From assembly GCA_041666205.1 (NCBI GenBank), contig JBAYHI010000001.1, forward strand, positions 26,894 through 90,893: 64,000 nucleotides of DNA, written 5' to 3'. Below are positions 4,650-63,491 of the stretch, one piece after another. Source of the stretch: Patescibacteria group bacterium. GTDB lineage: Bacteria; Patescibacteriota; Patescibacteriia; UBA9934. The stretch's first letter is position 1; every line of letters begins with the position of its first letter. Made by a program: the position numbers and the translations under genes. Under the pieces are notes generated by a model. That model searched no databases. It had not been told where the DNA came from and worked only from the letters and a program-made list of their open reading frames with translations.

Positions 4650-4661
4650 AATGCACTCATT

Positions 4662-19044: not shown

Positions 19045-19546
19045 ATGATTTATCGTCTAAATGCGCAAACGCCGGCCCAGAGTTGGGTCGGCGCGGAGGA
19101 GGAACAGAAGAGACTAGATGGTCAGCTGCCTGGATGCGGAAGCACTGGTGCAGACTTCATCCTTGCAAACCGCCACGATGTACACGAAGTCCTTGCTAAA
19201 GGTTTCTCCCGCGAACACCCTGTGGGTTTCTGTCGATGCCGATTCTCCCGGAACCGACACTCGCTCGTGCACCGGATGCCCTTTCATCTTGTTCACGAGA
19301 GCTCGAGCCAGATCCTCCGCCATCTTTTTGGTCTCATCGCGTTCGCGCGTGAGCGCGTCGATCCTCCGGCGCAACCACCACACCACGAAGATGCTGAGGG
19401 CGACGTAGAAGAGGGAGAAGATGAGGGAAAGGGTTTGCATGGCAAAATCCTCCAAGCATGCAGGTTTGTCCTGCGGTGAGACGTGCGTCGACGAATCGAC
19501 GGTCATAGAGATGACGAAAAAAGATACCAAGAAAACACCGCCACGT
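19045..19546 (-). other. Unit 1 of a GC-rich tandem cassette: promoter (TTGACG-17-TATCTT at 19521-19549), structured 5' UTR, small-TM-protein CDS, terminator hairpin
   Basis: The unit is repeated at 19547-20060. The non-coding flanks are nearly identical while the coding DNA has diverged. Confidence 0.7.
19114..19440 (-). CDS. Small N-terminal single-TM protein (108 aa), cassette paralog 1
   Basis: GGAGG sits 7 nt upstream of the ATG at 19440. An N-terminal hydrophobic helix is followed by a charged helix (RRRIDALTRERDETKKMAEDLARALVNK) and a Cys/His-containing tail. The ORF-track start at 19530 lies upstream of the RBS and is less likely. Confidence 0.6.
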   Translation of the reverse strand: MQTLSLIFSLFYVALSIFVVWWLRRRIDALTRERDETKKMAEDLARALVNKMKGHPVHERVSVPGESASTETHRVFAGETFSKDFVYIVAVCKDEVCTSASASRQLTI

Positions 19547-20060
19547 CAACGTTTCATTCATCTAAATGCGCAAACGCCGGCCCAGCGAGATGGGCCGGCG
19601 CGGAGAGTGATGAGGAGTGCCTAGTTGGCCGGTCCCAAGAATTTTGCCTTGGTGCAATGACCGTCTGAGTCGTGGGCTTCGGCCACGATGTCAAGGTAAC
19701 CACCTTCATGCATCACATCACGTCCAGCGGGGTGGATAGTGAAGCGATCTTCCCCATCAATGCGTCTGGGTTGAGCACCGCAGACATCTATTCCGTTGAT
19801 CTGGTTGATGAGCGCCTGGGCCAAGACGTCAATAATCTGGTTGGCGAACTTGAGCTCGTCTTCGACCTGCTCCACCCTTTTACTGAAGGAGTAGATGATG
19901 ATGAGGCAGAGGATGCCGATGACAAGGGCGAATCCGGCGAGAAGGGTGTTCATGGTAAGTCCTCCAATGCAGTGTGGGCGTCGATGATTCGACGGTCATT
20001 GAGATGACGAAAAAAGATACCAAGAAATCATTGCCGCGTCAATCGCGCAATCAAAAAACC
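19547..20060 (-). other. Unit 2 of the GC-rich tandem cassette (promoter TTGACG-17-TATCTT at 20014-20042)
   Basis: Same architecture as unit 1. A ccggccca...tgggccgg terminator hairpin sits at about 19575-19605. Confidence 0.7.
19621..19953 (-). CDS. Small N-terminal single-TM protein (110 aa), cassette paralog 2
   Basis: GGAGGA upstream of the ATG at 19953. An N-terminal TM helix precedes LAQALINQINGI, which aligns with LARALVNKMKG of paralog 1. Identity to paralog 1 is only about 25-30% by eye. Confidence 0.6.
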   Translation of the reverse strand: MNTLLAGFALVIGILCLIIIYSFSKRVEQVEDELKFANQIIDVLAQALINQINGIDVCGAQPRRIDGEDRFTIHPAGRDVMHEGGYLDIVAEAHDSDGHCTKAKFLGPAN

Positions 20061-32263: not shown

Positions 32264-32339
32264 GGCGGCTATAGCACAATGGTTAGTGCACTGGGTTGTG
32301 GTCCCAGCTATAAGGGTTCGATTCCCTTTAGTCGCCCCA
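32264..32339 (+). tRNA. tRNA-His (GTG) with extra 5' G(-1)
   Basis: G-1 plus acceptor gcggcta/tagtcgc, anticodon loop ttGTGgt, T arm aaggg-ttcgatt-ccctt, discriminator C then CCA. Confidence 0.8.
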
Positions 32340-32375
32340 TTAAAAAATCTCTGCAAACGCAGAGGTTTTTTAATA
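32340..32375 (+). terminator. Intrinsic terminator after tRNA-His
   Basis: tctctgcaaacgcagagg followed by tttttt. Confidence 0.7.
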
Positions 32376-32494
32376 GTCGTTTAGGAATTGAACCCTTATA
32401 GCTGGTTGAATTCGGGTTCGATGACCAAACGAGCGAGGAAAACAGAATCCTTTTCTGATTTCCGAGCGAGAGCAGAACATCTGGCAAAGCCAGA

Positions 32495-32547
32495 TTCCCT
32501 TTAGTCGCCCCATTGAAAAATCTCTGCAAACGCAGAGGTTTTTTAAT
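32495..32547 (+). repeat. Direct repeat of the tRNA-His 3' end plus terminator (copy of 32322-32374, 1 mismatch); att-like scar
   Basis: 53 of 53 nt match except 1 mismatch. The intervening 120 bp contains an inverted degenerate tRNA-His fragment (32384-32405). Confidence 0.7.
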
Positions 32548-32552
32548 TGTGT

Positions 32553-32587
32553 CGTCGTAGGGACGTTGCCTGCAACGTCCGTGAATC
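32553..32587. repeat. Palindromic intergenic repeat family P, copy 1 (tcgtcgtagggacgttgcctgcaacgtccgtgaat)
   Basis: Core inverted repeat ggacgttgc/gcaacgtcc. Two more copies lie at 58369-58403 and 59711-59742. A perfect 8-bp palindrome gggtggcc/ggccaccc follows at 32593-32614. Confidence 0.7.
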
Positions 32588-41845: not shown

Positions 41846-41922
41846 GATCCTGTAGCTCAACTGGATAGAGCAGGTCCGTCCTAAGGACAAGGTTACAGGT
41901 TCAAATCCTGTCAGGATCACCA
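41846..41922 (+). tRNA. tRNA-Arg (CCT)
   Basis: Acceptor gatcctg/caggatc, anticodon loop gtCCTaa, T arm acagg-ttcaaat-cctgt, plus CCA. Confidence 0.75.
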
Positions 41923-41960
41923 GCCTTCGCTCCTTCGGAGCTACGGCTGGCGGGCCAGCC
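41920..41960 (+). repeat. Conserved about 40-nt hairpin trailer following the tRNA (copy 1)
   Basis: caccagccttcgctccttcggagctacggctggcgggcca is nearly identical to 42187-42227 after tRNA-Ala. Nested stems ccagcc/ggctgg and ctcc-ttcg-gag. Confidence 0.6.
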
Positions 41961-42113
41961 ATGGTTCGGTGAATAGCAAATGGTGAGCGTCATGGATTTT
42001 GATGGATGGCTAGGAGAAAATCGAGCAACTAGGAAGCGTACCTATATGGTACGATGACGAAGTGCGGAGGTTTTCGACAGCGCCAGACGCAAAATCCATA
42101 GCGAACAGAATAC

Positions 42114-42189
42114 GGGCCTATAGCTCAGTTGGTAGAGCGCTGCATTCGCATTGCAGAGGTCGGCGGTTCGAATCCGCCTAGGTCCACCA
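42114..42189 (+). tRNA. tRNA-Ala (CGC) with G3:U70
   Basis: Acceptor gggccta/taggtcc has the G3:U70 alanine identity pair. Anticodon loop ttCGCat, T arm ggcgg-ttcgaat-ccgcc, plus CCA. Confidence 0.85.
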
Positions 42190-42227
42190 GCCTTCACTCC
42201 TTCGGAGTTTCGGCTGGCAGGCCATCC
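42187..42227 (+). repeat. Conserved hairpin trailer after tRNA-Ala (copy 2)
   Basis: caccagccttcactccttcggagtttcggctggcaggcca. Confidence 0.6.
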
Positions 42228-47800: not shown

Positions 47801-47830
47801 GTTGATGTCCCGCTTCGCCGTCAGGTATAA
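44807..47830 (+). CDS. Large surface protein: signal peptide, two ITW-type repeats, Pro/Thr/Glu-rich linker, three carboxypeptidase-regulatory-like domains, TM segments
   Basis: Start at MMNL, overlapping the previous stop. Repeats LDAPNGGESLDYGDAQNITWS and VTSPNGGESYEQGVSRTITWTS. Linker EPPVEPPVEPPTEPPTTPP. CarboxypepD_reg-like patterns (SDGRYFFNVDAGKYFIRVTKPGF; DRKGRYAFMVGPNEYYASFEKPGYE). Confidence 0.7.
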   Translation: MMNLVNRCFFGAVVVTIAFFACGNSVVSAASITNVYDQPSTLLISTASNHNFTIVPTSNIDEGDTLTLTFPSGFTTASITEDDVDIADDSVDLTTASDSCAGAEQASVVMASNILTITVCAGDGGTIAAGSTVAIEIGLNASASGTGANQITNPSAVATYFIALAGTFGDFGSIPIPILSRVGGTASATVPSFAAGGSGEEPSPSYMITLDAPNGGESLDYGDAQNITWSNGAAIPLIDIYYSTDSGASYALIAAGQTNDGLYSWTVPDVTTTRARVRVDGMDGSATLATDASDADFTIIGSSIGADYLVTVTSPNGGESYEQGVSRTITWTSGSLISTVNILYSTNGGSSYTSIASGESNDGAYTWTVPVVVTADAKIKIEGIVGALQISSDESDGAFSITAPVVIEEPEPEIPPVEPPVEPPVEPPTEPPTTPPTESPTTPPVTPPGGAEPGTETPATPSPTTTEIEGVEHEVNVTVTTEDGSIALGGDEGAYVLPGMPVLVRVIAEDTEKIEDVSVTIGNRTYMPSEVSDGVYVVSAPIAGGVTNVTVITTYTDGETTSTVGLAQMGYGIVYEIVDDAWVPVSGALVTVQDWSGVNNPAITGSDGAVGWYAPNGSYTVRVEKEGYETKEVGLSVSNNVLAPNVELTKTAEEIIEEVIPGETIVPVVVSETVQVISQSVTQVATAVSDAVIAVRENQAVQDVATVATPVMVVSAVSSAAVLSTSFNLWPILQYLFTAPILFFARRRRQNFGIVYNSITKVPIDLAVVRLYDAQAKLVRTMVTDSDGRYFFNVDAGKYFIRVTKPGFTFPSAYLSGVKADGNFVDIYTQGYLEVTEQSVIIAANIPLDPVSEEGAKATKRIRKDKILRVFQNSVALAGIILAIYIVVIQPSAFSWLMLGVQVLLYVGTKLLIRPRKKKGWGIVYGAEDRSPIANAIVRLFEPKYHKLLETAITDRKGRYAFMVGPNEYYASFEKPGYETREVRPIDYRNKKELTPISVDVPLRRQV

Positions 47831-47916
47831 TGAGGAAAGATTTCGTATTGCGGGAGGTGGATTTTTACGAATGCACCTCTTGCTGTATGAAGCATGAGGA
47901 TTCCTTCTTGAACCGG

Positions 47917-50900
47917 ATGAAAAAAATCGCACGTTTGTTCGTGATCGTGTTTGTTTTTGCGTTTGCATTTGGTGTTACGGCTCCTAAACTTCTCAATGCA
48001 AATGCTGCCGCATCACCAAGCAATATTATTGGCTACCAAGGTCGACTTTTAAATGCAAACGGCGTTCCCCTTACCGACGCGACGGTTGATGTGATCTTTC
48101 GACTTTATACGGCGTCTTCCGGTGGTTCGTGTTTGTGGTCAAACTCTTCGGCTACATGTGCATCAGCCACCGCGCGAAGCGTAACGCTTACAGATGGGCT
48201 TTTTTCTGAAAATCTTGGTGACACGGGAAGTTCTTACGCGGCGATTGCAAGCACGGTATTTGGAGATAATGCAGCGGTCTACTTGGATGTAAATGTGGAG
48301 GGCGAGAGCCTATCGCCTCGTCGTCTTTTGGTTGCGGCGCCATATGCCTTGAATGCACAAACGCTCGATGGAATTGATTCTACGGCATTTGCGCTTCTTA
48401 CAAGTACCGATTTGGATGACGCATATAATAATTTCACTACGAATGCGGCTGTCATCAATATCGACGACAATAACAACGATACGAATGCAGGCCTCACATT
48501 TCTTTCTGCAAACGATACGATCGTTGGGGGCACCATGCTCCAAATTACCAACAACGACACGACCAATAATCCAACAACACTTGCAATCACCAATACCAGC
48601 ACGGGTAGTGGCTTGGCAGTGACGCAGTCCGGGGCAGGGGTTGGGGTTGCAATTACCCAAAACGGTGCTTCAACCGGGCTTACCCTTTCACAAACAACAG
48701 ATTCAATCGCTTTTGGGCTCACTTCCAGTTCAACAACAGCGAATGTTTTTGATATTTCTTCCGGGACGACTTCAGGAAAGATTTTTGATATAACAACGTC
48801 CGCGCTGACGACTGGGAAAATATTTGATCTCACAACGTCCGCGCTGACCACGGGAACGATTTTGGATATTGGAATCACTTCGGAAAATGTGAGTACGGCC
48901 GATATTATTCGCGCATCACATACAAAAATCATCGACACAACCCAGGCGATTTCTGGCAACATGATTGATTTCGAGCGTGTCTTGATGTCAGATACGGGTG
49001 GGGATGTTACCATTTCGGGCGACATGGTAAGTCTCGTAAGCGCAGGTTCAGCGTCTGGCGGTACGCTTACGGATTCGTCAAATGTTCTTTTTGCAAAACA
49101 AGATTATGCCTCCGCAACCGGTGCTGTCATTAATATCGATAACGACGGTGTCGGAGAAGGAATCTGGATTGAACAAGATGGCGATGGTCGCGGAATGTTT
49201 ATTAACCAAGATGGCGCTGGAATTGGTTTGGAAATTGATGCAGAAGCCACGGCATATTCGGGACTTTATGTGAATAGCGCGGCCACTGGCGCCAATGCGA
49301 TTGATTTTATTGGGAGTACGAATACTGGCAAGTTATTAAATCTCACCGCAAACTCCCTCACAACTGGTGTAGGGATTGATTTAGCAACGACGTCTACCTT
49401 GCTTACAAGCGGGGACCTCATTCAAGCGGATCATAGCGCAACGTATACGACCACGAAGACGCTTGACGGGAACTTATTGGATTTAAGTCGTAATCTTACA
49501 ACAAACGGGGCAGGGGCTCTCACATTGAGTGGTGCGCTTGCAACGCTTTCAAATACAGGAACGCAAACCGCAGGGACGCTCACGGATTCATCAAATATTC
49601 TTTTCCTCGATCAGAATTACGCAGCCTCAACCGGGGCGGCACTTCTCATTGATTCCGAATCACTAACAGGTCCATCGATTCAGGTGGATAGCGTTGCCAC
49701 AACTGGGAGCACGGTGGTTGTGAATGCGCCAAGCACAACCACGGGTACGATTTTGAGCATCACCGGCGGTAACTTTACTGACGATTCTGGGTTAGCACTT
49801 GCCATTGACGTGACGGAATCCACTGAGACGGCAAATATTTTGAATATTCAAACAGATTACAGCTCTGGTAATAATAACGTGTTCCGAATTGAAGCCGACG
49901 GCGAAGCATTTAGCGATATTGGGTTCACAGCTGGAGCATTTTCAACAAATTATTACGATGGATCCATTACCTCAACTGGCGCGTTCACCTACGAAGCGGC
50001 AACGAGTTTTACCTGGCAAGACGACGCGGTTGGCCCAAATACACTCATGACGCTCACAGATCTTGGAACGAACGCAACCCTGAGTGTCACAGGGGACTTG
50101 TTTATCGACAAAAATGACAATGATGTCGCTCTAGAAATCGACAGCGAATCCACAACAACCAATGTTTTTGCGCTCAATGCTGATCCAAATCTTTCAGGGA
50201 ATGTTCTTGACATGAGCGCCGATGGATTAACATCCGGAAATGGTTTGGATATTCAAAGTACGTCAACGGCGCTTACAAGCGGAGATCTCATCCAAGCCGA
50301 CCACACGGCAACGTATGGATCTGGCACAGTCAGTGGAAACCTACTTGATCTAACGCGAGCAATCGCAGGTACAGCAACGGTAAACGGATCACTTGCAACA
50401 CTCGCAAGTACAAATAGTGGGAGTGTAACGGATAGCGCAAATATTTTGTTCCTCGATCAGAATTACGCAGCCTCAACCGGGGCGGCACTTCTCATTGATT
50501 CCGAATCACTGACAGGTCCATCGATTCAAGTGGATAGCGTTGCGACAACCGAAAATACGGTGGTTGTGAACGCACCAAGCACAACAACCGGAACAATTTT
50601 GAGCATCACTGGTGGGAACTTTACCGACGATTCCGGATTGGCGCTTGCCATTGACGTTGGGGAATCAACCGAAACAGCAAATATTTTGAATATTCAAACA
50701 GATTACAGTTCTGGCAATAATAACGTGTTCCGAATTGAAGCCGACGGCGAAGCATTCAGCGACATTGGATTTACTGCTGGCTCGTTCTCGACAAATTATT
50801 ACGATGGATCCATTACTTCGACCGGAGCGTTTACATATGAGTCTGCTACGAGTTTTACTTGGCAAGACGACGCGGTTGTCCCGAATACACTCATGACCCT

Positions 50901-53900
50901 CACAGATCTTGGAGCAAATGCAACCTTGAATGTTACAGGCGACCTATTCATTGATAAGAACGATAATGATGTAGCACTCGAAATTGATAGTGAATCTACA
51001 ACGACGAACGTTTTTGTCCTAAATGCGGATCCGAACCTTTCAGGGAACGTCTTTGACATGAGTGCCGATGGATTGACCTCTGGGAATGGCTTAGATATTC
51101 AAAGTACGTCAACGGCGCTTACAAGTGCAGATCTTATCCAAGCTGACCACACGGCAACGTATGGATCGGGAACAGTCAGTGGAAACCTACTTGATCTAAC
51201 GCGAGCAATCGCAGGTACAGCGACGGTCAATGGAGCGCTTGCGACGCTTTGGAGCAAAAATACGGGGAGCGTCACTGATTCCGCAAATATTTTGTTCTTG
51301 GACCAAGATTTCGCGACGTCCACAGGTTCTGCACTCAAAATTGATACGACAACAAGTGCCGGAAAAGCCATTGAGGTTCTTGCTGACAATTTCGGCGGCA
51401 GCGGGAGTGCTATTTCTGTATCACTTGATAATTTGAATGACGGGACAGGGTTTTTACTTGATTCAACATCTGCAAATATTTCCTCTGGTAAGCTCGCAAA
51501 CTTGAGCCATGCCGGAACCTATACGACCGGCGGACCAGTTTCTGGCAATATCCTTGCTGTTTCACGTGCTGTGCAAGTAGATAATGGCCCGTATATTACG
51601 GACGTCACAGGTTCGGTATTTGCGCTATCAAGCAATAATGGAACACTTGGCGGAACCATGAACGACAGTGCGCAAGTGCTTTCAATTTCGCAGTTATATA
51701 CTGGCGCAACGGGTGATGTTTTGAATATCAATAATGACTCAACCGCTTCAACCTCAATCGGCATTCTTGCCGACAGTACGACGGGCACGGTTTTTTCCGC
51801 AACCGCAAATGCGCTCACAACCGGAAATGGTATTGATTTGACAACTGCCTCCACCGTGCTTACGAGTTCGGATCTTATTCAAGTCGATCACACCGCAACA
51901 TATGGGTCTGGCACGATTTCGGGAAATATTCTTGATTTAAGTCGCGCAATTGCAGGCACAGCAACGGTCAATGGAGCGCTTGCCACGCTTGCGAGTACAA
52001 ATAGCGGAAGCGTGACAGATGGAGCAAATATTCTATTCCTCGATCAAAATTACACGGCGTCAACCGGAGCGGCACTGCTTATTGATTCAGAATCGACTGC
52101 TGGTTCCTCGATTGCTATTTTAAGTTCTGCCACCACCGGGGACACGCTTGAAGTGAACGCCTCTGCGACAACAAGCGGGAATATTTTGGATATTGGTGCA
52201 AACGCTGTTGCAAACGGGAAGGTAATCGATATTGATAATAGCGCGCTTACCACAGGATCCATCATTGATATCATCACGGATTCCGGCGCGATCTCTTCTG
52301 GAGATCTTATTCAAATGAATCACAATGGCAGTTATTCCACCAATGTCGGGTTAAGTGGCAGTTTTATGGATTTTACTCGTGACCTTACGAGCACGGCCAA
52401 TACGCTCACCGTTACCGGGCCGATGGTTGAATTCCACAGCGATGGCACGGTTTCGGGAGGGGCGGTGACGGATTCATCAAATATTTTATTCCTGAACCAG
52501 GACTACGAGGCATCAACTGGCGCATCACTTGCGATCGATTCAGAATCACTCACGGGCCCGTCCATTCAAATTGATAGTGCAACGACGACGGGAAATACAC
52601 TTGTTTTCAATGGGGATTATGTAACAACGGGCGCGGTGGAAGTACTAAGTGCAGACCGGTTGACTTCCGGGAATATTCTCGACCTTTCAAGTACTTCCAC
52701 GGTATTGGAGGGGAGCGACTTCATTCAAGGTGATCACACCGCAACATACGTTACAAGCAAAACAATCACCGGCAACCTGCTTGATTTGAGCCGAAACCTT
52801 ACGCTCAACGATGCAGGAAGCGGATATACGCTAGGGATCACCGGAGCACTCGCAACTCTTGCCAATACGGGGACTCAAACATCCGGTACACTCTCGGATT
52901 CCTCAAATATTTTGTTCCTCGATCAAAACTACGCCGCGTCAACTGGCGCGGTGCTCGCAATTGATTCTGAGGCAACATCGAGCAATGCACTTTTGATTGA
53001 TGCTGCAAACACCGATACCGCAGTTATTGCAGCCAATGGCGATAGTTTGACGACTGGAAATCTTCAAACCATGAGCGCTGATGCTCTTACAACTGGCAAT
53101 GGGATCGACATTTCAACAACATCTACGGCGCTCACAAGTTCTGACTTATTCCAGGCCGACCATACAGCAACCTATACAACCACAACGAACGTTACGGGAA
53201 ATCTTTTAGACTTACGTCGTATTCTAACAATCAACGATGGTGGGTCTGACGATCAAACGCTCACATCAAGTGGTGCACTTGCCTATATTCAAAGCGCCAC
53301 AACCGATACATCGGGAGCACTTGCAATTACGGCGCCGCTTCTTTGGCTCGATGAAGACTCTACTGCTTCCACGAATACGATTTTAAAAATTGATTCCGCT
53401 TCCACATCAACAACCGCCATTGGAATCACCGCGGATGCGCAAACAACAGGAAACGGTATTCTTATGAGCGTTGATGGGATGACAACCGGATCTGCTCTAT
53501 ACATTGAGCGTGGGGACGGGGCAACACAATTCTCTGATACTACGGAGGGATTGGCCTATATCGCTCAATTGGACGATAACTCCAATGGTCATATTTTGCA
53601 GGTGAAGAGCAATGGGAGCGGTGGGATATTGGGATATTATAATCACACAGGTCTCAATTCAACGGATCCTGTTTTGAAGGTAATCTCAAATAGCGTAGCA
53701 GATTCGGCAAATGAAGGAATCAATGGATTTGTTGCGGAGTTTATCAATAATAGTGCGGATACAGGTTTAGATAACCGCATGGGGATCATGATCCAGGCCT
53801 GTAAAGACGATGGTGCAACAACAGCATGTAATTTTCTTGAATTCCGCGATGGTGATGGAACGGCAATGGGGGCTGTTGAAGCAAATGGAGCCGGTGGTGT

Positions 53901-55917
53901 TACTTTGCGTAGCGGAAGCGCGGACTATGCCGAATATTTTAATGGCAATCCAGCACTTTTCCCAGAAGGAGTTATTGCCGGCATTCAATCCGATGGTTCC
54001 GTAGCGCCAGCAATCACGGATGAATCTGTAATTGGTGTCCGTTCAATCTCGCCGATTGTATTAGGAGGCGTAAGCGAGGGTGAGTCTATTGCCAATAAAG
54101 TAACGGTTGGTTTGTTTGGCCAGATTCGCGTGAATGTTAATAATGAAGGTGGTGCAATTACAGCAGGCGACTACATTACGGTTTCGTCAGTCCCCGGCGT
54201 TGGGAAGAAGGCAACGGAATCGGGAAAAGTCGTGGGTCAAGCGCTTGAATCCATTGATGGATCGGGCCTCATCAAAGTTTACGTTGCCCCACATTGGCAG
54301 GGAATTAATTTCCTCGCCTCCGACGGAAGTGCAACAACGGTTGCAACCGATTTCATTGTCGACGCTGTCGGCCCGGCCACAGAAAGCTCTGCCTCTGCAT
54401 CACGCTCACTCATCCTGCGCGGTTCAGCCTGGGTTGATGGCGCTTCTGCCTCAACCGATATGGTCATTTTGAACGACGTAACGGATAGTTCTGACTATGG
54501 ATTGAGCGTTTCAAATAACGATGGATCTGAAGTGGCTAATTTGAGCAATAATGGCGATTTGGCAATTGCGGGGAACCTGTATCCATCAGATCGAGGAGTT
54601 TTGCAAACGGAAAAGTATATTTATTACGATGGCTCAACTGGCGTTGGTGGCGATTTAATGCGCACAAATGCCTCGGGATGGGGAACAGGATCATATGACT
54701 TTGCCGAAATGTTCCCGTCAAGTGATTCACTCGCAGCTGGCGAACTTGTGATTTTTGGAAGCAGCAATGAAAGCGTTGCGCGGTCAAGTGGCGCAACATA
54801 CGATCAAATGATTGCCGGTGTGGTTTCAACAAAACCTGGATTCTTAGCCGGTGAAAACAATCCTGGCGATGTGCCGGTGGCTCTTGCGGGTCGTGTTCCA
54901 ACCTATGTGAGTGGGGAAAACGGTTCCATCGCACCTGGTGATCCACTTACATCTTCTACAAAGCCGGGTTATGCCATGAAGGCTACGACTGCTGGACCAA
55001 TCGTTGGCTACGCCATGGAAGCGTTTGATGGAAATACCGGCGTTGTGATTGCGTTCATTCGCCCTTCCTATTATGACGGCGCAACCGATTTGGCTGATGC
55101 CCCGGCTGCAGACAATTCCGCCTCAGAACTTGAAGGTGTTTCCACGCTCAATTTATCGCAAATGCATGATTTGGCAGGTGGAAAACTTATCAATGTTGGT
55201 AGTCTCTCTGGGTTGGCTGGGGCGTGGACATTATCCGAAAACGGGAACTTTGCAACGAGTGGTGACATCAAACACGTCGTAACTTCTTATCAAAATGAGA
55301 AGATCGATACGTACGCTTCTCTTTCTCGCGAACAAACGATTCAATTATCTGGTACCGTGGACATGCAAAATGGATTTGCTAGCGTCACATTTGAAGATGT
55401 AGACGAAAAATTCAATGATGTGATTTCAAATATTGCCCCGTATCGAGTGCTTATTACACCAGAAGGACTTTCGGGACAGCTCTACGTATCAAATCGTGAC
55501 CAAAATGGATTCACGATTCAAGAAAATGGCGGTTCATCGAATGTGAAAGTTGATTGGCTCGTGATCGCCTACGAAAAAGATAAGGAGCCGGAGCAAGAAT
55601 CGCTCATCCCAGAAGATAATATCCCAGCCGAAGAAACGCCTATCGTTTCGGATCCAGTGAGCAATGACGCTGGGACAACCCCAGGGTTGTCCGTACCTGG
55701 GGAATCGCCGGAGGAAATAATTCCTTCGCAAGATCCCATCGTTGATCCAGACGTAGGGACAACTCTAGAGTTGTCCGTGCCAAATGAACCAACCGAAATC
55801 GTCGAACCGATCATTGAAACGCCAACCGAACCGATCATCGATAATTCGTTGATTAATGACGTAGGGACAACCCCAGGGTTGTCCGTACCGGAAGAATCAA
55901 CGATCATTACGGAATAA
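47917..55917 (+). CDS. Giant (about 2660-aa) Thr/Ser/Gly/Asn-rich repeat surface protein
   Basis: Single uninterrupted ORF. Start chosen at MKKIARLFVIVFVFAFAFG (signal peptide); alternatives are 47830 and 47887. It is built from about 280-aa degenerate repeats, including two near-identical 846-bp tandem copies. The C-terminus has three [ND]D[AV]GTTPGLSVP[GE]ES repeats. Confidence 0.8.
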   Translation: MKKIARLFVIVFVFAFAFGVTAPKLLNANAAASPSNIIGYQGRLLNANGVPLTDATVDVIFRLYTASSGGSCLWSNSSATCASATARSVTLTDGLFSENLGDTGSSYAAIASTVFGDNAAVYLDVNVEGESLSPRRLLVAAPYALNAQTLDGIDSTAFALLTSTDLDDAYNNFTTNAAVINIDDNNNDTNAGLTFLSANDTIVGGTMLQITNNDTTNNPTTLAITNTSTGSGLAVTQSGAGVGVAITQNGASTGLTLSQTTDSIAFGLTSSSTTANVFDISSGTTSGKIFDITTSALTTGKIFDLTTSALTTGTILDIGITSENVSTADIIRASHTKIIDTTQAISGNMIDFERVLMSDTGGDVTISGDMVSLVSAGSASGGTLTDSSNVLFAKQDYASATGAVINIDNDGVGEGIWIEQDGDGRGMFINQDGAGIGLEIDAEATAYSGLYVNSAATGANAIDFIGSTNTGKLLNLTANSLTTGVGIDLATTSTLLTSGDLIQADHSATYTTTKTLDGNLLDLSRNLTTNGAGALTLSGALATLSNTGTQTAGTLTDSSNILFLDQNYAASTGAALLIDSESLTGPSIQVDSVATTGSTVVVNAPSTTTGTILSITGGNFTDDSGLALAIDVTESTETANILNIQTDYSSGNNNVFRIEADGEAFSDIGFTAGAFSTNYYDGSITSTGAFTYEAATSFTWQDDAVGPNTLMTLTDLGTNATLSVTGDLFIDKNDNDVALEIDSESTTTNVFALNADPNLSGNVLDMSADGLTSGNGLDIQSTSTALTSGDLIQADHTATYGSGTVSGNLLDLTRAIAGTATVNGSLATLASTNSGSVTDSANILFLDQNYAASTGAALLIDSESLTGPSIQVDSVATTENTVVVNAPSTTTGTILSITGGNFTDDSGLALAIDVGESTETANILNIQTDYSSGNNNVFRIEADGEAFSDIGFTAGSFSTNYYDGSITSTGAFTYESATSFTWQDDAVVPNTLMTLTDLGANATLNVTGDLFIDKNDNDVALEIDSESTTTNVFVLNADPNLSGNVFDMSADGLTSGNGLDIQSTSTALTSADLIQADHTATYGSGTVSGNLLDLTRAIAGTATVNGALATLWSKNTGSVTDSANILFLDQDFATSTGSALKIDTTTSAGKAIEVLADNFGGSGSAISVSLDNLNDGTGFLLDSTSANISSGKLANLSHAGTYTTGGPVSGNILAVSRAVQVDNGPYITDVTGSVFALSSNNGTLGGTMNDSAQVLSISQLYTGATGDVLNINNDSTASTSIGILADSTTGTVFSATANALTTGNGIDLTTASTVLTSSDLIQVDHTATYGSGTISGNILDLSRAIAGTATVNGALATLASTNSGSVTDGANILFLDQNYTASTGAALLIDSESTAGSSIAILSSATTGDTLEVNASATTSGNILDIGANAVANGKVIDIDNSALTTGSIIDIITDSGAISSGDLIQMNHNGSYSTNVGLSGSFMDFTRDLTSTANTLTVTGPMVEFHSDGTVSGGAVTDSSNILFLNQDYEASTGASLAIDSESLTGPSIQIDSATTTGNTLVFNGDYVTTGAVEVLSADRLTSGNILDLSSTSTVLEGSDFIQGDHTATYVTSKTITGNLLDLSRNLTLNDAGSGYTLGITGALATLANTGTQTSGTLSDSSNILFLDQNYAASTGAVLAIDSEATSSNALLIDAANTDTAVIAANGDSLTTGNLQTMSADALTTGNGIDISTTSTALTSSDLFQADHTATYTTTTNVTGNLLDLRRILTINDGGSDDQTLTSSGALAYIQSATTDTSGALAITAPLLWLDEDSTASTNTILKIDSASTSTTAIGITADAQTTGNGILMSVDGMTTGSALYIERGDGATQFSDTTEGLAYIAQLDDNSNGHILQVKSNGSGGILGYYNHTGLNSTDPVLKVISNSVADSANEGINGFVAEFINNSADTGLDNRMGIMIQACKDDGATTACNFLEFRDGDGTAMGAVEANGAGGVTLRSGSADYAEYFNGNPALFPEGVIAGIQSDGSVAPAITDESVIGVRSISPIVLGGVSEGESIANKVTVGLFGQIRVNVNNEGGAITAGDYITVSSVPGVGKKATESGKVVGQALESIDGSGLIKVYVAPHWQGINFLASDGSATTVATDFIVDAVGPATESSASASRSLILRGSAWVDGASASTDMVILNDVTDSSDYGLSVSNNDGSEVANLSNNGDLAIAGNLYPSDRGVLQTEKYIYYDGSTGVGGDLMRTNASGWGTGSYDFAEMFPSSDSLAAGELVIFGSSNESVARSSGATYDQMIAGVVSTKPGFLAGENNPGDVPVALAGRVPTYVSGENGSIAPGDPLTSSTKPGYAMKATTAGPIVGYAMEAFDGNTGVVIAFIRPSYYDGATDLADAPAADNSASELEGVSTLNLSQMHDLAGGKLINVGSLSGLAGAWTLSENGNFATSGDIKHVVTSYQNEKIDTYASLSREQTIQLSGTVDMQNGFASVTFEDVDEKFNDVISNIAPYRVLITPEGLSGQLYVSNRDQNGFTIQENGGSSNVKVDWLVIAYEKDKEPEQESLIPEDNIPAEETPIVSDPVSNDAGTTPGLSVPGESPEEIIPSQDPIVDPDVGTTLELSVPNEPTEIVEPIIETPTEPIIDNSLINDVGTTPGLSVPEESTIITE
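49590..51281 (+). repeat. Two near-identical in-frame tandem repeats of 846 bp (282 aa) inside the giant ORF
   Basis: The 49606 ctcgatcagaattacgcagcctcaaccggggcggcacttctc string recurs at 50452; period 846 nt. Protein segments TDSSNILFLDQNYAASTGAALLIDSESLTGPSIQVDS ... are near-identical. Confidence 0.85.
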
Positions 55918-58584: not shown

Positions 58585-59658
58585 ATGCTGAGAGTTGGAA
58601 TTGTTGGCCTCCCAAATGTTGGAAAATCAACGTTTTTCACTGCGCTTACACGCAAGACTGTGGATTGCGCCAATTTTCCGTTTTGCACCATTGAGCCAAA
58701 CGTGGGCGTTGTTGAGGTGCCTGATGCTCGAGTGGATGTACTCACACAGATGTCACACTCAAAGAAGCGCATTCCAACCGCAATTGAATTTTTGGACATT
58801 GCTGGACTCGTTAAAGGCGCGCACAAAGGCGAAGGCTTGGGCAATAAGTTTTTGGCAAATATCCGTGAAACCGATATGATTGCGCACGTTGTTCGTGCAT
58901 TTGAAAACTCCGATATCATCCACGTCGATGGATCGGTGAATGCAATTCGAGATGCTGAAGTCATCGAAACCGAGCTCATGATGGCGGATTTGACAACCGT
59001 CGATAAACGCTACGACGCGATTGAACGTCGCGCGCTTGCAACCAAAGAAACCGCGCTTGTCACGGAAGTTGCTGGCCTCAAGAAATTTAAAGATGCGCTT
59101 GAGAGCGGAAAAATGGCGTCAACGGTGGTTTTGACCGACGATGAATATCTTATTCTCAAGGATTTACAGCTCATGACACAAAAACCCATGCTCTATATTG
59201 TGAATGTATCGGAAGACGAATTCAAAAAAGGGGATTGGAAATCGCCATTTGGACCAGATAAAATTGCAATTCCGATTTCTGTGAAAATTGAAGCAGAACT
59301 CTCCGCTATGCCTCCTGAGGAAGCAAAAGAGATGATGGGTGAGTTTGGAATGAAAGAGTCAGGCCTTGATTCCGTGATCCGAACCGCGTACGGAATGCTC
59401 GATCTCATTACGTATTTCACAACCGGCGAAGATGAAACACGCGCATGGACCATTAAGAAGGGCACAAAAGCGCCACAAGCAGCCGGCGTTATTCACACAG
59501 ACTTTGAAAAAGGATTTATTCGAGCCGAAGTGATTGGCTACGATGATTTCATCGCTTGCGATGGGGAAGTAAAAGCACGCGAAACCGGCAAATTGCGAGT
59601 TGAAGGAAAAGAATACGTCATGAAAGACGGGGATATTTGTCATTTTCGATTTGCGTAG
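58585..59658 (+). CDS. ychF: Ribosome-binding ATPase YchF (Obg-family)
   Basis: G1 motif GIVGLPNVGKST, the YchF-specific NxxD region and a C-terminal TGS domain. Confidence 0.9.
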   Translation: MLRVGIVGLPNVGKSTFFTALTRKTVDCANFPFCTIEPNVGVVEVPDARVDVLTQMSHSKKRIPTAIEFLDIAGLVKGAHKGEGLGNKFLANIRETDMIAHVVRAFENSDIIHVDGSVNAIRDAEVIETELMMADLTTVDKRYDAIERRALATKETALVTEVAGLKKFKDALESGKMASTVVLTDDEYLILKDLQLMTQKPMLYIVNVSEDEFKKGDWKSPFGPDKIAIPISVKIEAELSAMPPEEAKEMMGEFGMKESGLDSVIRTAYGMLDLITYFTTGEDETRAWTIKKGTKAPQAAGVIHTDFEKGFIRAEVIGYDDFIACDGEVKARETGKLRVEGKEYVMKDGDICHFRFA

Positions 59659-59680
59659 GGGTCGGATTTCTCGACCCGCT

Positions 59681-59742
59681 CGGGCGAGGGAACCTCGCCC
59701 GTACGATGATTCGCCGTAGGGACGTTGCGTGCAACGTCCATT
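59681..59742. repeat. Palindrome cgggcgagg-gaac-ctcgcccg followed by repeat family P, copy 3 (59711-59742)
   Basis: tcgccgtagggacgttgcgtgcaacgtccatt. Confidence 0.7.
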
Positions 59743-59799
59743 CTTTAAACGAAAAAGCGGCTCTGCGAGACGATTGCAGATGCCGCTTGGGGGAGAGAG

Positions 59800-60608
59800 T
59801 CACCAGCCTGGAATTTCACCGGCGGTGATTTTTTTGTCCGGCTGGACTTTTTCCCCTCGTAGAACGCGATCGGCCACAACCACAGCGCTCAAGACTTCCG
59901 TGACGTACCTTGTGCCCTGACTCTCATCCTTTCGGATTCGAGCCGGGCCCTTGTTGTACGCCTTGAGCCCAAGCTCACGACTCTGGAAACTCGTTTCGTA
60001 GACTCGAAGGGTTTCGAGTCCGATCACGATGTTTTCCAGATCGCTTGCTGTGGCATCGACCTCATCTTGCCCAAGTTTTCTCGCCGCGACCGCCTTTGCC
60101 TGGTCTGGCGCAAGGCTGATTTGCATGAGGCCTTGGCTTAGTTGCTTACAGCCATGGCTCTCATGTGTGATGATTCCGAGCGCAAATGCGAGTGGGTAGC
60201 CCGAGATTTTCGCAGCCTTTTCAATGACCGCGCGCTTCCTGAGGCACTTCCTCACGGATGCTTCCTCTCCGAGTCGATCCCGATTGTAGATTCGGGTGAC
60301 GCTTGGGAGGATGCTCGTATCGAAGGTTGAAACGCCCCTATGGGGCACAACCTTCTTGGTCGTCGGGTTTTGGGGCTGAGGTTTTTTTGCGCTCTTCGGC
60401 TTCTCGGCCGGCTTCTGCTTCACGACGGAAATCTGTTCCGCCGTAGCGTGTCGCCGGTCGACTCGAACGGTGACGGTTTCCTCTACAGCGGGCGCTGCGA
60501 GGACGATTTCTTCCTCCGCGGGTGCGGAGAAGGCTCCATAGAAGGCGAGGGCTCTGGCCATGAAATAGACCAGGCCGATCATGAGGCAGAAAATGAAGTT
60601 TTTCACTT
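59800..60608 (-). CDS. Secreted lytic transglycosylase (SLT domain), GC-rich
   Basis: SLT family-1 motifs (ITHESHG ... GLMQISL). The proposed start is GTG at about 60608, preceded by GGAGA, giving signal peptide VKNFIFCLMIGLVYFMARALA. The ORF-track ATG at 60693 is an alternative. The GC rise coincides with the ORF. Confidence 0.65.
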
Positions 60609-60679
60609 CAATCTCCGATTTGGGGTAGGATTTTTGAGGGGAAATTTGAAAAGGGCAGGGCAATAAAATATCACAAAAA

Positions 60680-60712
60680 AGCCGTTTTGTCAACGGCTTT
60701 TGTGTAATATTG
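60680..60712. terminator. Intrinsic terminator for the methyltransferase gene
   Basis: aaaaaagccgttttgtcaacggcttttgtg. Confidence 0.6.
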
Positions 60713-60713
60713 G

Positions 60714-62069
60714 CTATTTTTTGATGAATCTCACAATGTGCCGCCCAACGAATTGATCGTCTCGCTGGTACAGGATATTTGCCGGGAAGTCGCCAAGGTC
60801 AAATCCGAGTTCTTGCATGATTTCCAAACCCTTTGTTTCAAATCGTTTCTTTTGAATGCAATGCACAGGGAAAGCCACAACAATCACTCCGCCCGGTTTC
60901 ATTACCTTATAGATAGCCGAAAAACTCTCGCGGTAAATGCTGTTTAAGTCTCGGATTGTTGCTTGAATGGTTTCTTCAACCTCGTAGCCAGTGCGCGGAC
61001 GTCCCAAAAATGGTTCCGTGACCACAATGTCGACGGATTCTTTCTCAATGTGCGCTTCGAGATTTTTTGCAGCGCTGACGAATAGGGAGAACGGCGGTAA
61101 TTCCTGTTGTTCCGAAATCCACGCCAGGTTTTCTTCCGAATCTTTGATTGCCTGCTCGTTAACGTCTGACCCGATCATTTTTTCGCATCCGATGAGTCCG
61201 GCCTCCATTAGCACAGTGCTCGAGCCACAAAATGGATCCAAAATCGTTTTGTCAGTAATGTCGCCGGCTAAATTGAGCATCATGCGTGCCAATTTTGGCG
61301 GAAGCATGCCTTGCTTTGCATTTCGCGCAGGTCGATCGAAGTCGCGATGCGACCAATCTTCAAAATCTTGGATCGTTTCGGTTTTTCCGATGTACACCTT
61401 ATCTTTTGTTGGTAAAATTACGAACTCGCAACCGCGCGCTAGCAAATCATTCTTGGCAATGGCTGCGCTTGAGAGCGTTTTGTCCTTTGAAACAACGAGT
61501 CGCGCGCTGTATCCTTGATCCTTGAGCGCGGTTTTCACGGAAAGTCCTAAAGACTGCGATTTATTTCGCCAATAGTCGGCTGAAGGTTTGTCGCCCATAT
61601 TGTAAACGCTCAAGCCTAGAAGCAATCGGCCTTCTTTTTCTTCGGCAATGAGGCTTTGCGCTAGAAATTCCACGAGTTCTTTTTGATCTTCGCGAATAAA
61701 CGAGCCAATAATGATGCCGATTTTTTGAATGCCAGCCAAACGCTTTTGCAAAACCTCTGGTTTTTCCTCTACATCGTCAAAAATAGCGATTTCCTCGCTC
61801 GAAACTGCCGGATCTGCATTTGTGACAGCTTTCCACTCTAATAAGGAAAGGCGGGGGTGGTTTCCCAATACCGTGAATAATTGCATAGCCTGATGATAGA
61901 GCTTTTGGGGATTCTGGTCAAAGAATGGGCCCGGGTACAGCTGTTTGACTTTCTGCAATTTTTCTGCTAATGTAGCGCGTTCTTTTGAAATAGAAATTTG
62001 AGTTGAAAGTGGCGTTTTGCCCCGATTATTTCGGGTCGAAAAGCCGCTTTCAACATTAGGGCCACTCAT
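60714..62069 (-). CDS. Class I SAM-dependent RNA/DNA methyltransferase (N-terminal domain plus Rossmann MTase; UPF0020/m2G-type motif IV)
   Basis: Motif I ILDPFCGSSTVLMEAGL; motif IV-like VTEPFLGRP (the (D/N/S)PP(Y/F) class). Start probably MSGPNVES at 62069 rather than 62090. Confidence 0.6.
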   Translation of the reverse strand: MSGPNVESGFSTRNNRGKTPLSTQISISKERATLAEKLQKVKQLYPGPFFDQNPQKLYHQAMQLFTVLGNHPRLSLLEWKAVTNADPAVSSEEIAIFDDVEEKPEVLQKRLAGIQKIGIIIGSFIREDQKELVEFLAQSLIAEEKEGRLLLGLSVYNMGDKPSADYWRNKSQSLGLSVKTALKDQGYSARLVVSKDKTLSSAAIAKNDLLARGCEFVILPTKDKVYIGKTETIQDFEDWSHRDFDRPARNAKQGMLPPKLARMMLNLAGDITDKTILDPFCGSSTVLMEAGLIGCEKMIGSDVNEQAIKDSEENLAWISEQQELPPFSLFVSAAKNLEAHIEKESVDIVVTEPFLGRPRTGYEVEETIQATIRDLNSIYRESFSAIYKVMKPGGVIVVAFPVHCIQKKRFETKGLEIMQELGFDLGDFPANILYQRDDQFVGRHIVRFIKK

Positions 62070-62121
62070 GTGTCCGTAGTCTCGGCGCATGAACCCCGGC
62101 GGCTTTTAAACGAGGTGTCCG

Positions 62122-62790
62122 ATGGCATCCATCGCTACCCTGGCCTCCTTCCTCGGCACTATCCAGAAGTTTCTGGGCATTTCGGCAAAGGACGGCCTGC
62201 CCGACGAATTCTACCAGAGGGTGATTGACGACCCTGTATTTCGCGGGCAGTTTGTCGCATGGGCGCAGGTTGAGCTTAACTCTACGGTTATCGCCGAACA
62301 TGACTCAGCACCGGCAGCGCGGAGCCTGCAGTCGATGATCGACCGGATGCGACGGAATCCGGTAGCGGATCCTGAAACCAGGCTAACGATCCCTCAGGTT
62401 GTGTGGGTGCTCGATCGCATCGTCAATGACGTTAAGGACCACGGTGTCCAATCGCTGTCGTTGAAAAGCGAGCATTGGCGGCGCTGGGTGATCAACATGA
62501 TCCCCGAGCTCACCTTTGATCGTGATGTCGAAGACGCCTTGAATGCGTTCGTCCGAGAATTCCACCTGGAGCTCCTTGATAGTCGGCTTATCGGGCAGAA
62601 CTCAAGGGATCTTGCGAACATGGGAGTGATTCAGGTGGAGGTCGTGAACGGAATCACGATGTACAATCCCAACCTTCCGTCTGGCTCCCAGGCAACCGTG
62701 GCGAGCATCCGACGCTGGGGCGTGCGTGGGACTACTCCTGTCCAGGCCGTTTACCGCAGCGCGCTCGTCGAGAGTGGCAATTGGGCGTAA
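62122..62790 (+). CDS. Hypothetical cytoplasmic protein, GC-rich
   Basis: 222-aa ORF with GAGG 7 nt upstream of the ATG; no TM segment or recognised motif. The GC rise begins about 50 nt upstream and persists to about 62900. Confidence 0.55.
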   Translation: MASIATLASFLGTIQKFLGISAKDGLPDEFYQRVIDDPVFRGQFVAWAQVELNSTVIAEHDSAPAARSLQSMIDRMRRNPVADPETRLTIPQVVWVLDRIVNDVKDHGVQSLSLKSEHWRRWVINMIPELTFDRDVEDALNAFVREFHLELLDSRLIGQNSRDLANMGVIQVEVVNGITMYNPNLPSGSQATVASIRRWGVRGTTPVQAVYRSALVESGNWA

Positions 62791-62906
62791 CCCCGTGAAC
62801 ATCTGCCTGCGAAGCAGACCTGCCGCATCTGCGGTGTGATCTCTCCATGTGAGGTCATGCCGGTCTCGGGTGCGGTTCTTTTATTTGGGGAGCTTCGCCT
62901 CTGGGC

Positions 62907-62935
62907 TTGACTGATTCACTAGTTTTCGCTAATAT
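62907..62935 (+). promoter_or_regulatory. Sigma70 promoter TTGACT-17-TAATAT for the rpsF-ssb operon
   Basis: Consensus-like -35 and -10 hexamers with 17-nt spacing about 70 nt upstream of rpsF. Confidence 0.6.
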
Positions 62936-63005
62936 TGCCACACTAATTCATAACATTGTCCAAGGCCCACAAGGCCGCCCCGTCGTACGGGGCCAATGAG
63001 AACCT

Positions 63006-63491
63006 ATGATCTACGAAATCCTCTCCATTATCCCTTCCAATTACTCTGATACAGAGATTGACGGGATTATTGGAAAAATCACGGCTGTTTGCGAAAAGCA
63101 GGGAGCCAAAGTCCAAAAGTCCGAGAATCTTGGGAAAATTCACTTGGCTTACCCAGTGAAAGCCTCGCACCATGGCACCTACGTGCTTCAATACGTTGAT
63201 GCTTCCACGGAAGTCATCGACAAAGTGAACCTCGATATTCGTCTTATGGACGAAGTTGCACGCCACCTCACGGTTGCTTGCGAAAACGGCATGCCAAAAG
63301 GCACATTCAAGATGGTTTCCTACGAAGCACCTCTTACTCCAGAAGGAAAACGAGCTACTTCAAAGACCGCTTCCGAAATGGCAGCGTCTGATGCTGCACC
63401 GGTTGCCGCTCCAATTGAAAAAATTTCCGTTACAGAGCTCGATAAGAAACTCGACGAAATCTTGGAGAGTGATATCGTATCTGATGTCTAA
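63006..63491 (+). CDS. rpsF: 30S ribosomal protein S6
   Basis: MIYEILSIIP...GKIHLAYPVK...GTYVLQYVD fits the S6 pattern (YE.VF...P...LEDWGRR.LAYPI.K...G.YVL). Acidic/Ala-rich tail. Confidence 0.85.
   Translation: MIYEILSIIPSNYSDTEIDGIIGKITAVCEKQGAKVQKSENLGKIHLAYPVKASHHGTYVLQYVDASTEVIDKVNLDIRLMDEVARHLTVACENGMPKGTFKMVSYEAPLTPEGKRATSKTASEMAASDAAPVAAPIEKISVTELDKKLDEILESDIVSDV

Follow-up and report, generated by a model that had tools for sequence, protein, structure and literature searches.

How does a conserved stretch of chromosome come to carry, one at a time, genes that look as if they belonged to another genome? The question is raised by a 64 kb stretch of DNA from a Patescibacteria group bacterium (the window; overall GC 0.473). 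Patescibacteria are ultra-small, mostly uncultured bacteria that are thought to live on host cells. Close to 60 kb in the window, two GC-rich genes flank a methyltransferase gene of native composition. One encodes a protein with an SLT (lytic transglycosylase) domain, and the other an orphan protein of 222 residues. On balance, the locus is probably a conserved backbone with two turnover slots, filled by accessory genes from a GC-richer Patescibacteria pool.

The backbone order is: giant surface protein; TPR membrane protein; YchF; slot B; Trm11-like methyltransferase; slot A; and rpsF-ssb-rpsR. Here slot B holds the SLT gene and slot A the 222-aa gene. The features on which the argument turns are these (GC3 is GC content at third codon positions):

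59800-60606, minus strand: SLT gene, 268 aa, GTG start at 60606, Pfam SLT domain, GC3 0.64.
60714-61886, minus strand: Trm11/UPF0020-like methyltransferase gene, about 390 aa from M69, GC3 0.49, a backbone gene.
61997-62121, plus strand: conserved structured 5' leader of about 125 nt, from alignment, RNAalifold and a covariance model.
62122-62790, plus strand: 222-aa gene, GC3 0.69, with an N-domain (residues 1-55) and a C-terminal module (residues ~60-222).
62791-62905, plus strand: 3' non-coding flank of the 222-aa gene, GC 0.60, ending where homology to the sister genome L004 resumes.
62907-62935, plus strand: rpsF promoter (TTGACT-17-TAATAT, promoter scan), marking the return of the native backbone, in a region conserved with L004.

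Both genes stand out quantitatively. Across 40 other genes of the window, core GC3 is 0.449 +/- 0.028, with a maximum of 0.527. Against these the SLT gene (GC 0.561, GC3 0.639) has z = 6.8, and the 222-aa gene (GC 0.574, GC3 0.691) z = 8.6. First and second codon positions are shifted as well (GC1 ~0.61-0.62 and GC2 ~0.41-0.43, versus ~0.55 and ~0.38 elsewhere), as is the amino-acid usage of the GC-rich genes: G, A, R, and P are up; F, Y, M, I, N, and K are down. The original prediction for this stretch, made from its letters alone, thus read the composition correctly: both genes are GC- and GC3-rich; the same signature recurs in other islands, at 187-2085 (GC3 0.80) and 19114-19953 (GC3 0.68-0.73); and the foreign-looking genes are embedded singly, each set in native DNA. 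It also held that the methyltransferase gene and all intergenic DNA have background composition. That is true of the methyltransferase gene (GC3 0.49), but three non-coding segments are GC-rich: 59659-59799 (0.60), 62030-62121 (0.565), and 62791-62905 (0.60). The non-coding segments of native composition are 60607-60713 (0.38), 61887-62029 (0.43), and 62906-63005 (0.49), and the maximal GC-rich segments run from 59653 to 60559 and from 62059 to 62875. In all, 5-6 of the ~55 genes in the 64 kb are atypical. A NifU-like gene (4662-5342, minus strand) has a moderately raised GC3 (0.56, z = 3.9), and may be acquired too.

The codon style of the SLT and 222-aa genes differs in kind from that of the core, beyond the shift in GC. 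AGR codons make up 24 of 79 Arg codons in the GC-rich genes versus 7 of 224 in core genes (p = 3e-10), and Arg CGG likewise is commoner; for Leu, CTG accounts for 31 of 136 codons versus 34 of 712 (p = 3e-10). Even the AT-rich codon AGA, taken alone, is enriched (8 of 79 versus 5 of 224, p = 0.006). Such enrichment is not expected from pure GC-favouring drift, and so indicates a different genomic origin.

This bears directly on a second reading, unlikely overall but a serious contender, in which these are resident, fast-evolving envelope or accessory genes whose GC-rich third positions are kept in place by GC-biased gene conversion at hot spots of recombination or by codon selection (for instance, for decoding of the rare Arg codons AGR and CGG). 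AGA enrichment is unexpected under any GC-favouring process. Moreover, the non-coding flanks of the 222-aa gene are GC-rich as well, and the window's other surface proteins (2695 aa and 795 aa) have native GC3. To our knowledge, GC3 gains of 0.2-0.4 exceed anything reported for bacterial gene conversion. On the other side, the genome has retained tRNA-Arg(TCT) and tRNA-Arg(CCT) even though core genes use AGR for only ~3% of their Arg codons, and most of the GC-rich orphan genes seen encode membrane or secreted proteins.

Comparison with relatives defines the slots. The closest relative, JGI contig Ga0376277_0006120 (L004), has the same backbone, with a methyltransferase 78% identical and housekeeping proteins 68-90% identical; it carries Ddl (GC3 0.35) in slot A and an SLT gene in slot B. 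By blastn, homology between the window and L004 breaks at 59651/60719 and at 61748/62906, and the GC-richness 3' of the 222-aa gene stops exactly at the 62906 breakpoint. The methyltransferase gene is syntenic in relatives, whose slots are variously occupied. In L094 (50% identity), slot A is taken by an HD-domain gene of native composition, and slot B is empty, as it is in L023. In L010 (47% identity), a GC-rich PP2C-like gene fills slot A, and slot B contains several small orphan genes that are GC-rich. In L011, a GC-rich gene for a secreted protein of 382 aa lies between YchF and the TPR gene. Slot A lacks the 222-aa gene in L004, L094, and L010; slot B lacks the SLT gene in L094, L023, and L010, but has it in L004. 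The synteny comparison that the original prediction proposed therefore places both genes in recurrent variable slots, whose contents differ or are missing in relatives. An alignment-based methyltransferase rescan of contigs gave 80 loci, none above 47% identity; a single-sequence scan found none. L004 shows another variable slot: two divergently oriented GC-rich orphan lipoprotein genes (4425-5866; GC3 0.63 and 0.70) lie between ftsK and efp, and are absent here.

Across ~60 Patescibacteria loci, 11% of orphan open reading frames (ORFs) are strongly GC-rich and 19% strongly AT-rich, versus outliers in 0-2% of conserved genes. Orphan outliers in both directions fit exchange from varied donors. 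For the same reason, GC-rich orphan genes as a general rule of Patescibacteria were rejected.

Might the arrangement be an artefact? The source is a metagenome-assembled genome (MAG), long chance ORFs arise in GC-rich DNA, and several overlapping frames are open in the islands. Nevertheless, a chimeric or contaminated assembly, or a 222-aa ORF that is merely a chance frame in GC-rich non-coding DNA, has a next to negligible probability. The window is contained in a 288-kb ENA metagenome contig (ERZ27249449 k141_1431597), and its junctions are identical in an independent Logan assembly: L002 spans methyltransferase, 222-aa gene, and rpsF with 0 mismatches in 2659 nt, and L093, of the second assembly, spans YchF-SLT with the same junction. 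Agreement between two assemblers, island boundaries marked by functional-looking promoter and terminator signals, and the same SLT arrangement in the sister genome make chimerism and chance ORFs unlikely. The 222-aa frame also has the order GC3 > GC1 > GC2 and a Shine-Dalgarno (SD) sequence, and its N-domain and leader are conserved in 10 of 12 contigs checked.

The signals of the SLT gene in slot B, and its counterpart in the sister genome, are as follows:

60665-60698, minus strand: SLT promoter, sigma-70-like, from a promoter scan (-35 TTGACA, 17 nt spacer, extended -10 TG-TATTTT).
59752-59786, minus strand: putative SLT intrinsic terminator (stem GCGGC...GCCGC, inner stem, T-run), found by inspection and unlisted by a simple terminator scan.
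59653-59745, plus strand: GC-rich hairpin cluster downstream of YchF (GC 0.60), including copy 3 of palindromic repeat P.
59711-59745: repeat P copy 3, core GTAGGGACGTTGCGTGCAACGTCC, with a terminator-like match at 59720-59739.
L004 11305-12207: SLT positional orthologue, 300 aa, GC3 0.81 versus a background of 0.41.

An SLT ORF does end at 59800 on the minus strand, as originally predicted, but the length of the span first given (59800-60608) is not divisible by three. GTG at 60606, which GGAG precedes by six nt, is the best start; in database gene calls the gene begins at 60561 or 60582. The promoter is embedded in the methyltransferase terminator hairpin (60680-60698), in an AT-rich native segment (GC 0.38). 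Repeat P copy 3 had been placed on the upstream side of the gene; it lies instead at the SLT 3' end, where the YchF and SLT genes converge, and resembles a terminator for YchF. Repeat P has three copies in the window (32557, 58374, and 59716) versus 0 expected by chance. Copy 2 (58374) adjoins no GC-rich ORF, so the repeat is a native element of the repetitive extragenic palindromic (REP) kind, not specific to islands. No copies were found in loci of other genomes, the further matches (L001, L093) being copies of the same genome.

Family-1 lytic transglycosylases are marked by a catalytic Glu in an ES motif, together with GLMQ and AYNxG. The SLT protein matches PF01464 with 32 bits (cut-off 21.3) over residues 156-259 of the 297-aa ORF. 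A profile of the two orthologues matches the catalytic domains of Slt70 and goose lysozyme (E = 7e-6), and the motifs ITHESHGC, GLMQIS, and AYNKGPA are invariant between them. The layout is: an N-terminal membrane helix; a linker region; a family-1 lytic transglycosylase (GH23) domain; and PGW at the C-terminus. By these sequence marks the protein is a genuine GH23 lytic transglycosylase, with predicted peptidoglycan cleavage. AlphaFold2 (AF2) models the N-terminal helix (residues 2-26) with a predicted confidence score (pLDDT) of ~90, which indicates a membrane anchor or signal in the model; the single-sequence whole model is otherwise unusable (pLDDT 42).

Relatives are few. A phmmer search of the SLT protein against PDB gave no match, and a word-indexed homologue search of 5.8 billion proteins returned only the SLT protein itself. 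A hidden Markov model (HMM) for SLT detected no additional SLT gene, whether close to the methyltransferase in other relatives or elsewhere in the window. It has been proposed that Patescibacteria breach host envelopes with their lytic transglycosylases (PMC11665869); by analogy, a host-wall role of the SLT protein is plausible and would match such proposals.

How long has slot B held this gene? The window and L004 proteins are only 35% identical. Even so, the region that comprises the methyltransferase terminator and SLT promoter is homologous between the two genomes, with compensatory stem changes and a conserved TTGAC...TTTTTTGTGATA, which implies that the SLT locus was inherited from their common ancestor. 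The SLT gene is thus not a recent insertion, since the homologous promoter is common to the sister-genome copy.

Age creates a puzzle of composition. In neighbouring genes of the window and L004, identity at four-fold sites is 0.30-0.49 (chance, 0.25), or roughly at least 1.4 substitutions per site. By our estimate, neutral decay over this distance leaves at most about one third of an initial GC3 excess. Given such near-saturated neighbours and neutral decay, the GC3 of 0.81 in L004 is not the relic of one ancient import. Maintenance in place gains from this: two SLT orthologues behind a homologous promoter, among near-saturated neighbours, are both GC-rich (0.64 and 0.81), and in L004 the GC-rich tract coincides with the SLT coding sequence, with native flanks. 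Against it, the two orthologues differ in codon style, CGA/AGG-rich in one and CGC/CGG-rich in the other. Either distant alleles out of a GC-richer pool have taken the place of the coding part, or some GC-favouring force is acting; on the evidence of codon style, we favour replacement. The puzzle bears on whether compositional foreignness always means recent transfer.

Slot A raises different issues. The original prediction of an ORF at 62122-62790 on the plus strand was correct, and its product belongs to a family that is rare and previously undescribed. Among 1.84 billion representatives, searched exhaustively with HMMER, only 10 proteins matched, all of them through residues 1-60; a word-indexed search returned the query and one partial match. 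The family alignment consists of a conserved 55-aa N-domain (consensus MASIATLASxLGxLQKFLGIxxKDGLPDxFYQRVIDDPxFR) followed by at least four unrelated types of C-terminal module. The closest N-domain relative, P0134, is identical in its first 19 residues and carries an unrelated C-terminal module, which indicates module swapping. For the window's own C-terminal module no relative was found. AF2 predicts a three-helix bundle for residues 1-55 (pLDDT 76-92); the rest, below 50, is unreliable, and a Foldseek search of the model against PDB gave nothing meaningful. No family member has a Pfam, PHROG, NCBIfam, PADLOC, or PDB match.

The family was found only in Patescibacteria-like contexts, and all named hosts are Patescibacteria. 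In each of the eight contigs with usable neighbouring genes, the family member lies above its neighbours in GC3:

Window: member 0.69, neighbours 0.45.
L003: member 0.855, neighbours 0.50-0.54.
L005: member 0.879, neighbours 0.63.
L006: member 0.805, neighbours 0.69-0.75.
L096: member 0.74, neighbours ~0.52.
L099: member 0.866, neighbours 0.43-0.60.
L098: member 0.665, neighbours 0.46.
L092: member 0.64, neighbours ~0.55.

Three short contigs lack usable neighbours: in L089 the region has a GC of 0.60 versus 0.42-0.50; the L090 member has a GC3 of 0.85; and in L095 GC jumps at the leader. The gene downstream of the family member is rpsF here, and L25, a small ORF, or others elsewhere. The L098 member lies ~610 nt downstream of an IS110-family transposase gene (L098 226-1338), and other members lie among housekeeping or toxin-antitoxin genes. 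A near-identical copy of the L098 member in L095 (1-700) has an in-frame stop after codon 81, which makes it a pseudogene or a sequencing error.

What travels with the N-domain is a leader. When the regions upstream of nine members were aligned, eight shared a leader that ends at the start codon (that of L092 is divergent). Its parts are: a long hairpin 1; hairpin 2; a conserved ACCCYGGCGGC; the SD sequence GGAGGUG; and a start codon set in a small hairpin (CGAUGG-nnn-CCAUCG). RNAalifold finds two hairpins in it. Paired cells amount to 91.4%, versus 80.2 +/- 1.4 in shuffles and 31-48% in slid controls; 14 pairs are changed on both sides, versus 5.4 +/- 1.5, a value reached by 0 of 500 shuffles. 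Frequent G-U pairs on the sense strand argue that pairing is at the RNA level. The covariance model (R1) scores 85-127 bits in eight loci, and 108 bits at the held-out L099. In all, the leader lies upstream of 10 of 12 family members checked (L092 scores 13.7 bits, and L096 has no match). Its copies beyond the window are:

L003, 80-228.
L005, 3731-3855.
L006, 1270-1420.
L089, 1133-1262.
L090, 8-136.
L091, 801-928.
L095, 691-823.
L098, 1819-1951.
L099, 2976-3106.

The window leader has a predicted minimum free energy of -63.1 kcal/mol (z = -4.95), with the SD region partly paired and the start codon in the small hairpin. Divergent family members keep that hairpin but build its stem from different sequences. 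A candidate promoter for the leader lies at 61945-61973. Since SD and start codon are partly base-paired in the model, the leader probably is a translational control element. It (61997-62121) has no match among 4227 Rfam families (Rfam 15; cmscan of 59500-63100, E <= 1); the sole match in that interval is a weak Trp-leader at 60672-60753, outside the leader. DNA homology between the window and L095/L098 starts ~80 nt upstream of the ATG, and GC rises there in both contigs, so the portable unit appears to include part of the leader.

The leader overlaps the N-terminal extension of a 458-aa ENA methyltransferase call (60714-62090), and this extension is spurious. The methyltransferase domain is clear (PF01170, 56 bits; a partial TIGR01177 match), and 1376 homologues of ~390 aa cover residues 69-458. 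Because homologues start at M69 (61886), the call is over-extended by 68 codons. A promoter-like site (61921-61893) lies just upstream of M69.

One further R1 match, 20 bits at 30-151 of the window, lies upstream of a 632-aa ORF; it covers hairpin 1 only, and was taken as a similar palindrome and not as a member. The ORF itself (187-2085, plus strand) is an orphan, unmatched in Pfam, PHROG, and NCBIfam, with several predicted membrane helices; no GC3 in the window is higher than its 0.80. Upstream of it, a long palindrome (34-93) and a second hairpin weakly resemble leader hairpin 1.

Where did the two genes come from? The original prediction asked whether their nearest relatives are in high-GC taxa, and none were found there: for SLT, the sister Patescibacteria genome supplied the sole relative, its positional orthologue, and the 222-aa family was likewise found only in Patescibacteria-like contexts. 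Both proteins match NCBI entries named 'Patescibacteria group bacterium'. As they nest in the same phylum as the housekeeping genes, any donor is most likely another Patescibacterium and not an outside high-GC lineage. (Many third-party annotation (TPA) MAG records, including L009, L010, L013, and others, have Patescibacteria gene content and synteny under the title 'uncultured Gammaproteobacteria/Pseudomonadales bacterium', and probably are mislabelled.)

SLT enzymes are common in phages and in type IV secretion system (T4SS) loci, and one family member, as noted, lies 610 nt from an IS110-family transposase gene. The two genes might then be cargo or remnants of a phage, prophage, or conjugative element, the SLT protein being an endolysin or VirB1-like enzyme. 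This account, which for the SLT gene was already part of the original prediction, is highly doubtful. Neither the SLT nor the 222-aa protein has a PHROG match; tblastn found no match in 50,697 phage or 72,556 plasmid records; PADLOC and IMG/VR searches yielded no relative. No integrase, T4SS gene, or tRNA lies nearby, the neighbours, YchF and a tRNA-type methyltransferase, being housekeeping genes. Furthermore, the SLT promoter is of chromosomal type, and common to the sister genome.

The account that fits best is thus the first: a conserved backbone with two slots. Each slot would have received one self-contained accessory gene, by uptake from a GC-richer gene pool of Patescibacteria or by exchange with it. 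Slot B would hold a monocistronic, membrane-anchored GH23 enzyme that cuts peptidoglycan outside the cell, presumably in the cell's own wall or in that of a host. SLT would have occupied the slot since the ancestor of the window genome and L004, its coding part then diverging extremely or being replaced by a distant allele. Slot A would hold a member of a modular family, with a leader that controls translation, a 55-aa N-domain, and an interchangeable C-terminal module.

Four points weigh against this account. A single ancient SLT acquisition followed by neutral amelioration cannot give the GC3 of 0.81 in L004, and requires either repeated replacement or a GC-favouring force. The GC3 excess of the 222-aa family in 8 of 8 contexts, over host backgrounds of 0.45-0.72, could be intrinsic, as maintenance in place would have it, instead of reflecting repeated recent import. 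Transfer, with its direction and source, is something we infer from composition and synteny only, as no close relative was found outside a few genomes, homologues proved too few for a tree, and no donor was identified. Finally, the slots (59.6-63.0 kb) showed no integrase, no tRNA, and no direct repeats flanking them.

A bolder and improbable idea is that the lineage keeps a distinct class of accessory genes, mostly for the envelope or for interaction and placed in recurrent slots of the core genome, in a GC-rich style (AGR/CGG and CTG) that is actively maintained and no passing trace of import, for example so as to couple expression to the little-used tRNA-Arg(CCU/UCU). The MASIATL family, named for the start of its N-domain, would then also be under a new, travelling class of leader, with its C-terminal module swapped.

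The window has other features of note. Two small paralogous membrane proteins are probably the products of the GC-rich island at 19045-20042 (minus strand, 19114-19530 and 19621-19953; GC3 0.73 and 0.68), whose plus-strand ORFs are likely spurious; a 65-nt direct repeat, 89% identical, overlaps the 5' (start-codon) end of both genes (19485-19549 and 19978-20042). At 32265-32586, a second copy of the tRNA-His 3' end plus 38 nt occurs 173 nt downstream of the first (32320-32377 and 32493-32550; 97% identical), and the arrangement resembles an att-site scar; repeat P copy 1 directly follows the second duplicate copy. The genes for tRNA-Arg(CCT) and tRNA-Ala(CGC) (41846-42227) each are followed by a similar GC-rich hairpin (41898-41960 and 42165-42227; 81% identical). 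The gene for the 2695-aa giant protein (47830-55917, plus strand) contains long internal families of direct repeats with periods of ~846, 741, and 426 nt (e.g. 49018-53505), and near its 3' end (55658-55898) three copies of a palindrome-containing 49-nt unit, GGGACAACCCCAGGGTTGTCC.

How Patescibacteria renew their host-contact proteins is largely unknown, and this locus gives three comparable examples: accessory genes slotted singly into a conserved core, with the same slots reused across genomes; a fast-diverging, membrane-anchored enzyme that is a candidate for attack on host walls or remodelling of the cell's own; and a modular family with a conserved leader, a testable regulatory RNA candidate in a phylum with few known.

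Each part of the locus has counterparts in known systems. The SLT protein shares with Escherichia coli Slt70, Pseudomonas aeruginosa Slt, and goose-type lysozyme the Pfam domain, the ES, GLMQ, and AYNxG motifs, and the R/YV motif that follows. Unlike Slt70, it is very divergent, has a single membrane helix and linker, and lacks the superhelical domain; its C-terminal PGW motif, common only to the sister-genome orthologue, also sets it apart from Slt70-type enzymes. VirB1, TrsG/CD419, and phage endolysins have the same catalytic fold. Local opening of peptidoglycan is a role proposed for specialised lytic transglycosylases, and VirB1 homologues are encoded by Patescibacteria (PMC12102498). In contrast to the settings of VirB1 and endolysins, virB4 and other T4SS genes are missing from the window, and no phage gene adjoins SLT.

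The leader resembles those of the riboswitch, thermometer, and attenuator kinds: a multi-hairpin 5' untranslated region with covariation, upstream of one family, with SD and start partly paired. It differs from known Rfam leaders in that no family matches, and its tie to a modular orphan protein family is unusual.

The protein family recalls polymorphic toxins in its conserved N-domain and swapped C-terminal modules, but has no recognisable toxin domain, adjacent immunity gene, signal peptide, or linked secretion system. Membership among polymorphic toxins was considered and found no support, as neither toxin domain nor immunity gene was detected with Pfam or PADLOC.

As a unit, the 222-aa gene also recalls an integron cassette, combining a single ORF with a long imperfect palindrome (arms GTTGAAA/TTTCAAC). 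In integrons, the attC site lies 3' of the cassette ORF, has the order R''(RYYYAAC)...R'(GTTRRRY), and belongs to an intI-linked array. Here the palindrome is 5' of the ORF, in the transcribed leader, and its core runs GTT...AAC, inversely to attC; the units lie dispersed. With the palindrome on the wrong side, an inverse core order, no intI, and no cassette array, the integron cassette was rejected.

The closest parallel is with the genomic islets of Patescibacteria (PMC12455944): single atypical genes in native DNA, with partners that apparently are other Patescibacteria. Single-gene transfers, mostly between Patescibacteria, are documented there, and atypical genes make up as much as 13% of Patescibacteria genome length (PMC12455944). 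Unlike those islets, the genes described here occupy recurrent slots of one conserved backbone, and SLT persists as a GC-rich positional orthologue. The locus is mainly another case of single-gene islets of this known kind (PMC12455944); what is new in it is a modular protein family and, as a candidate, a leader RNA.

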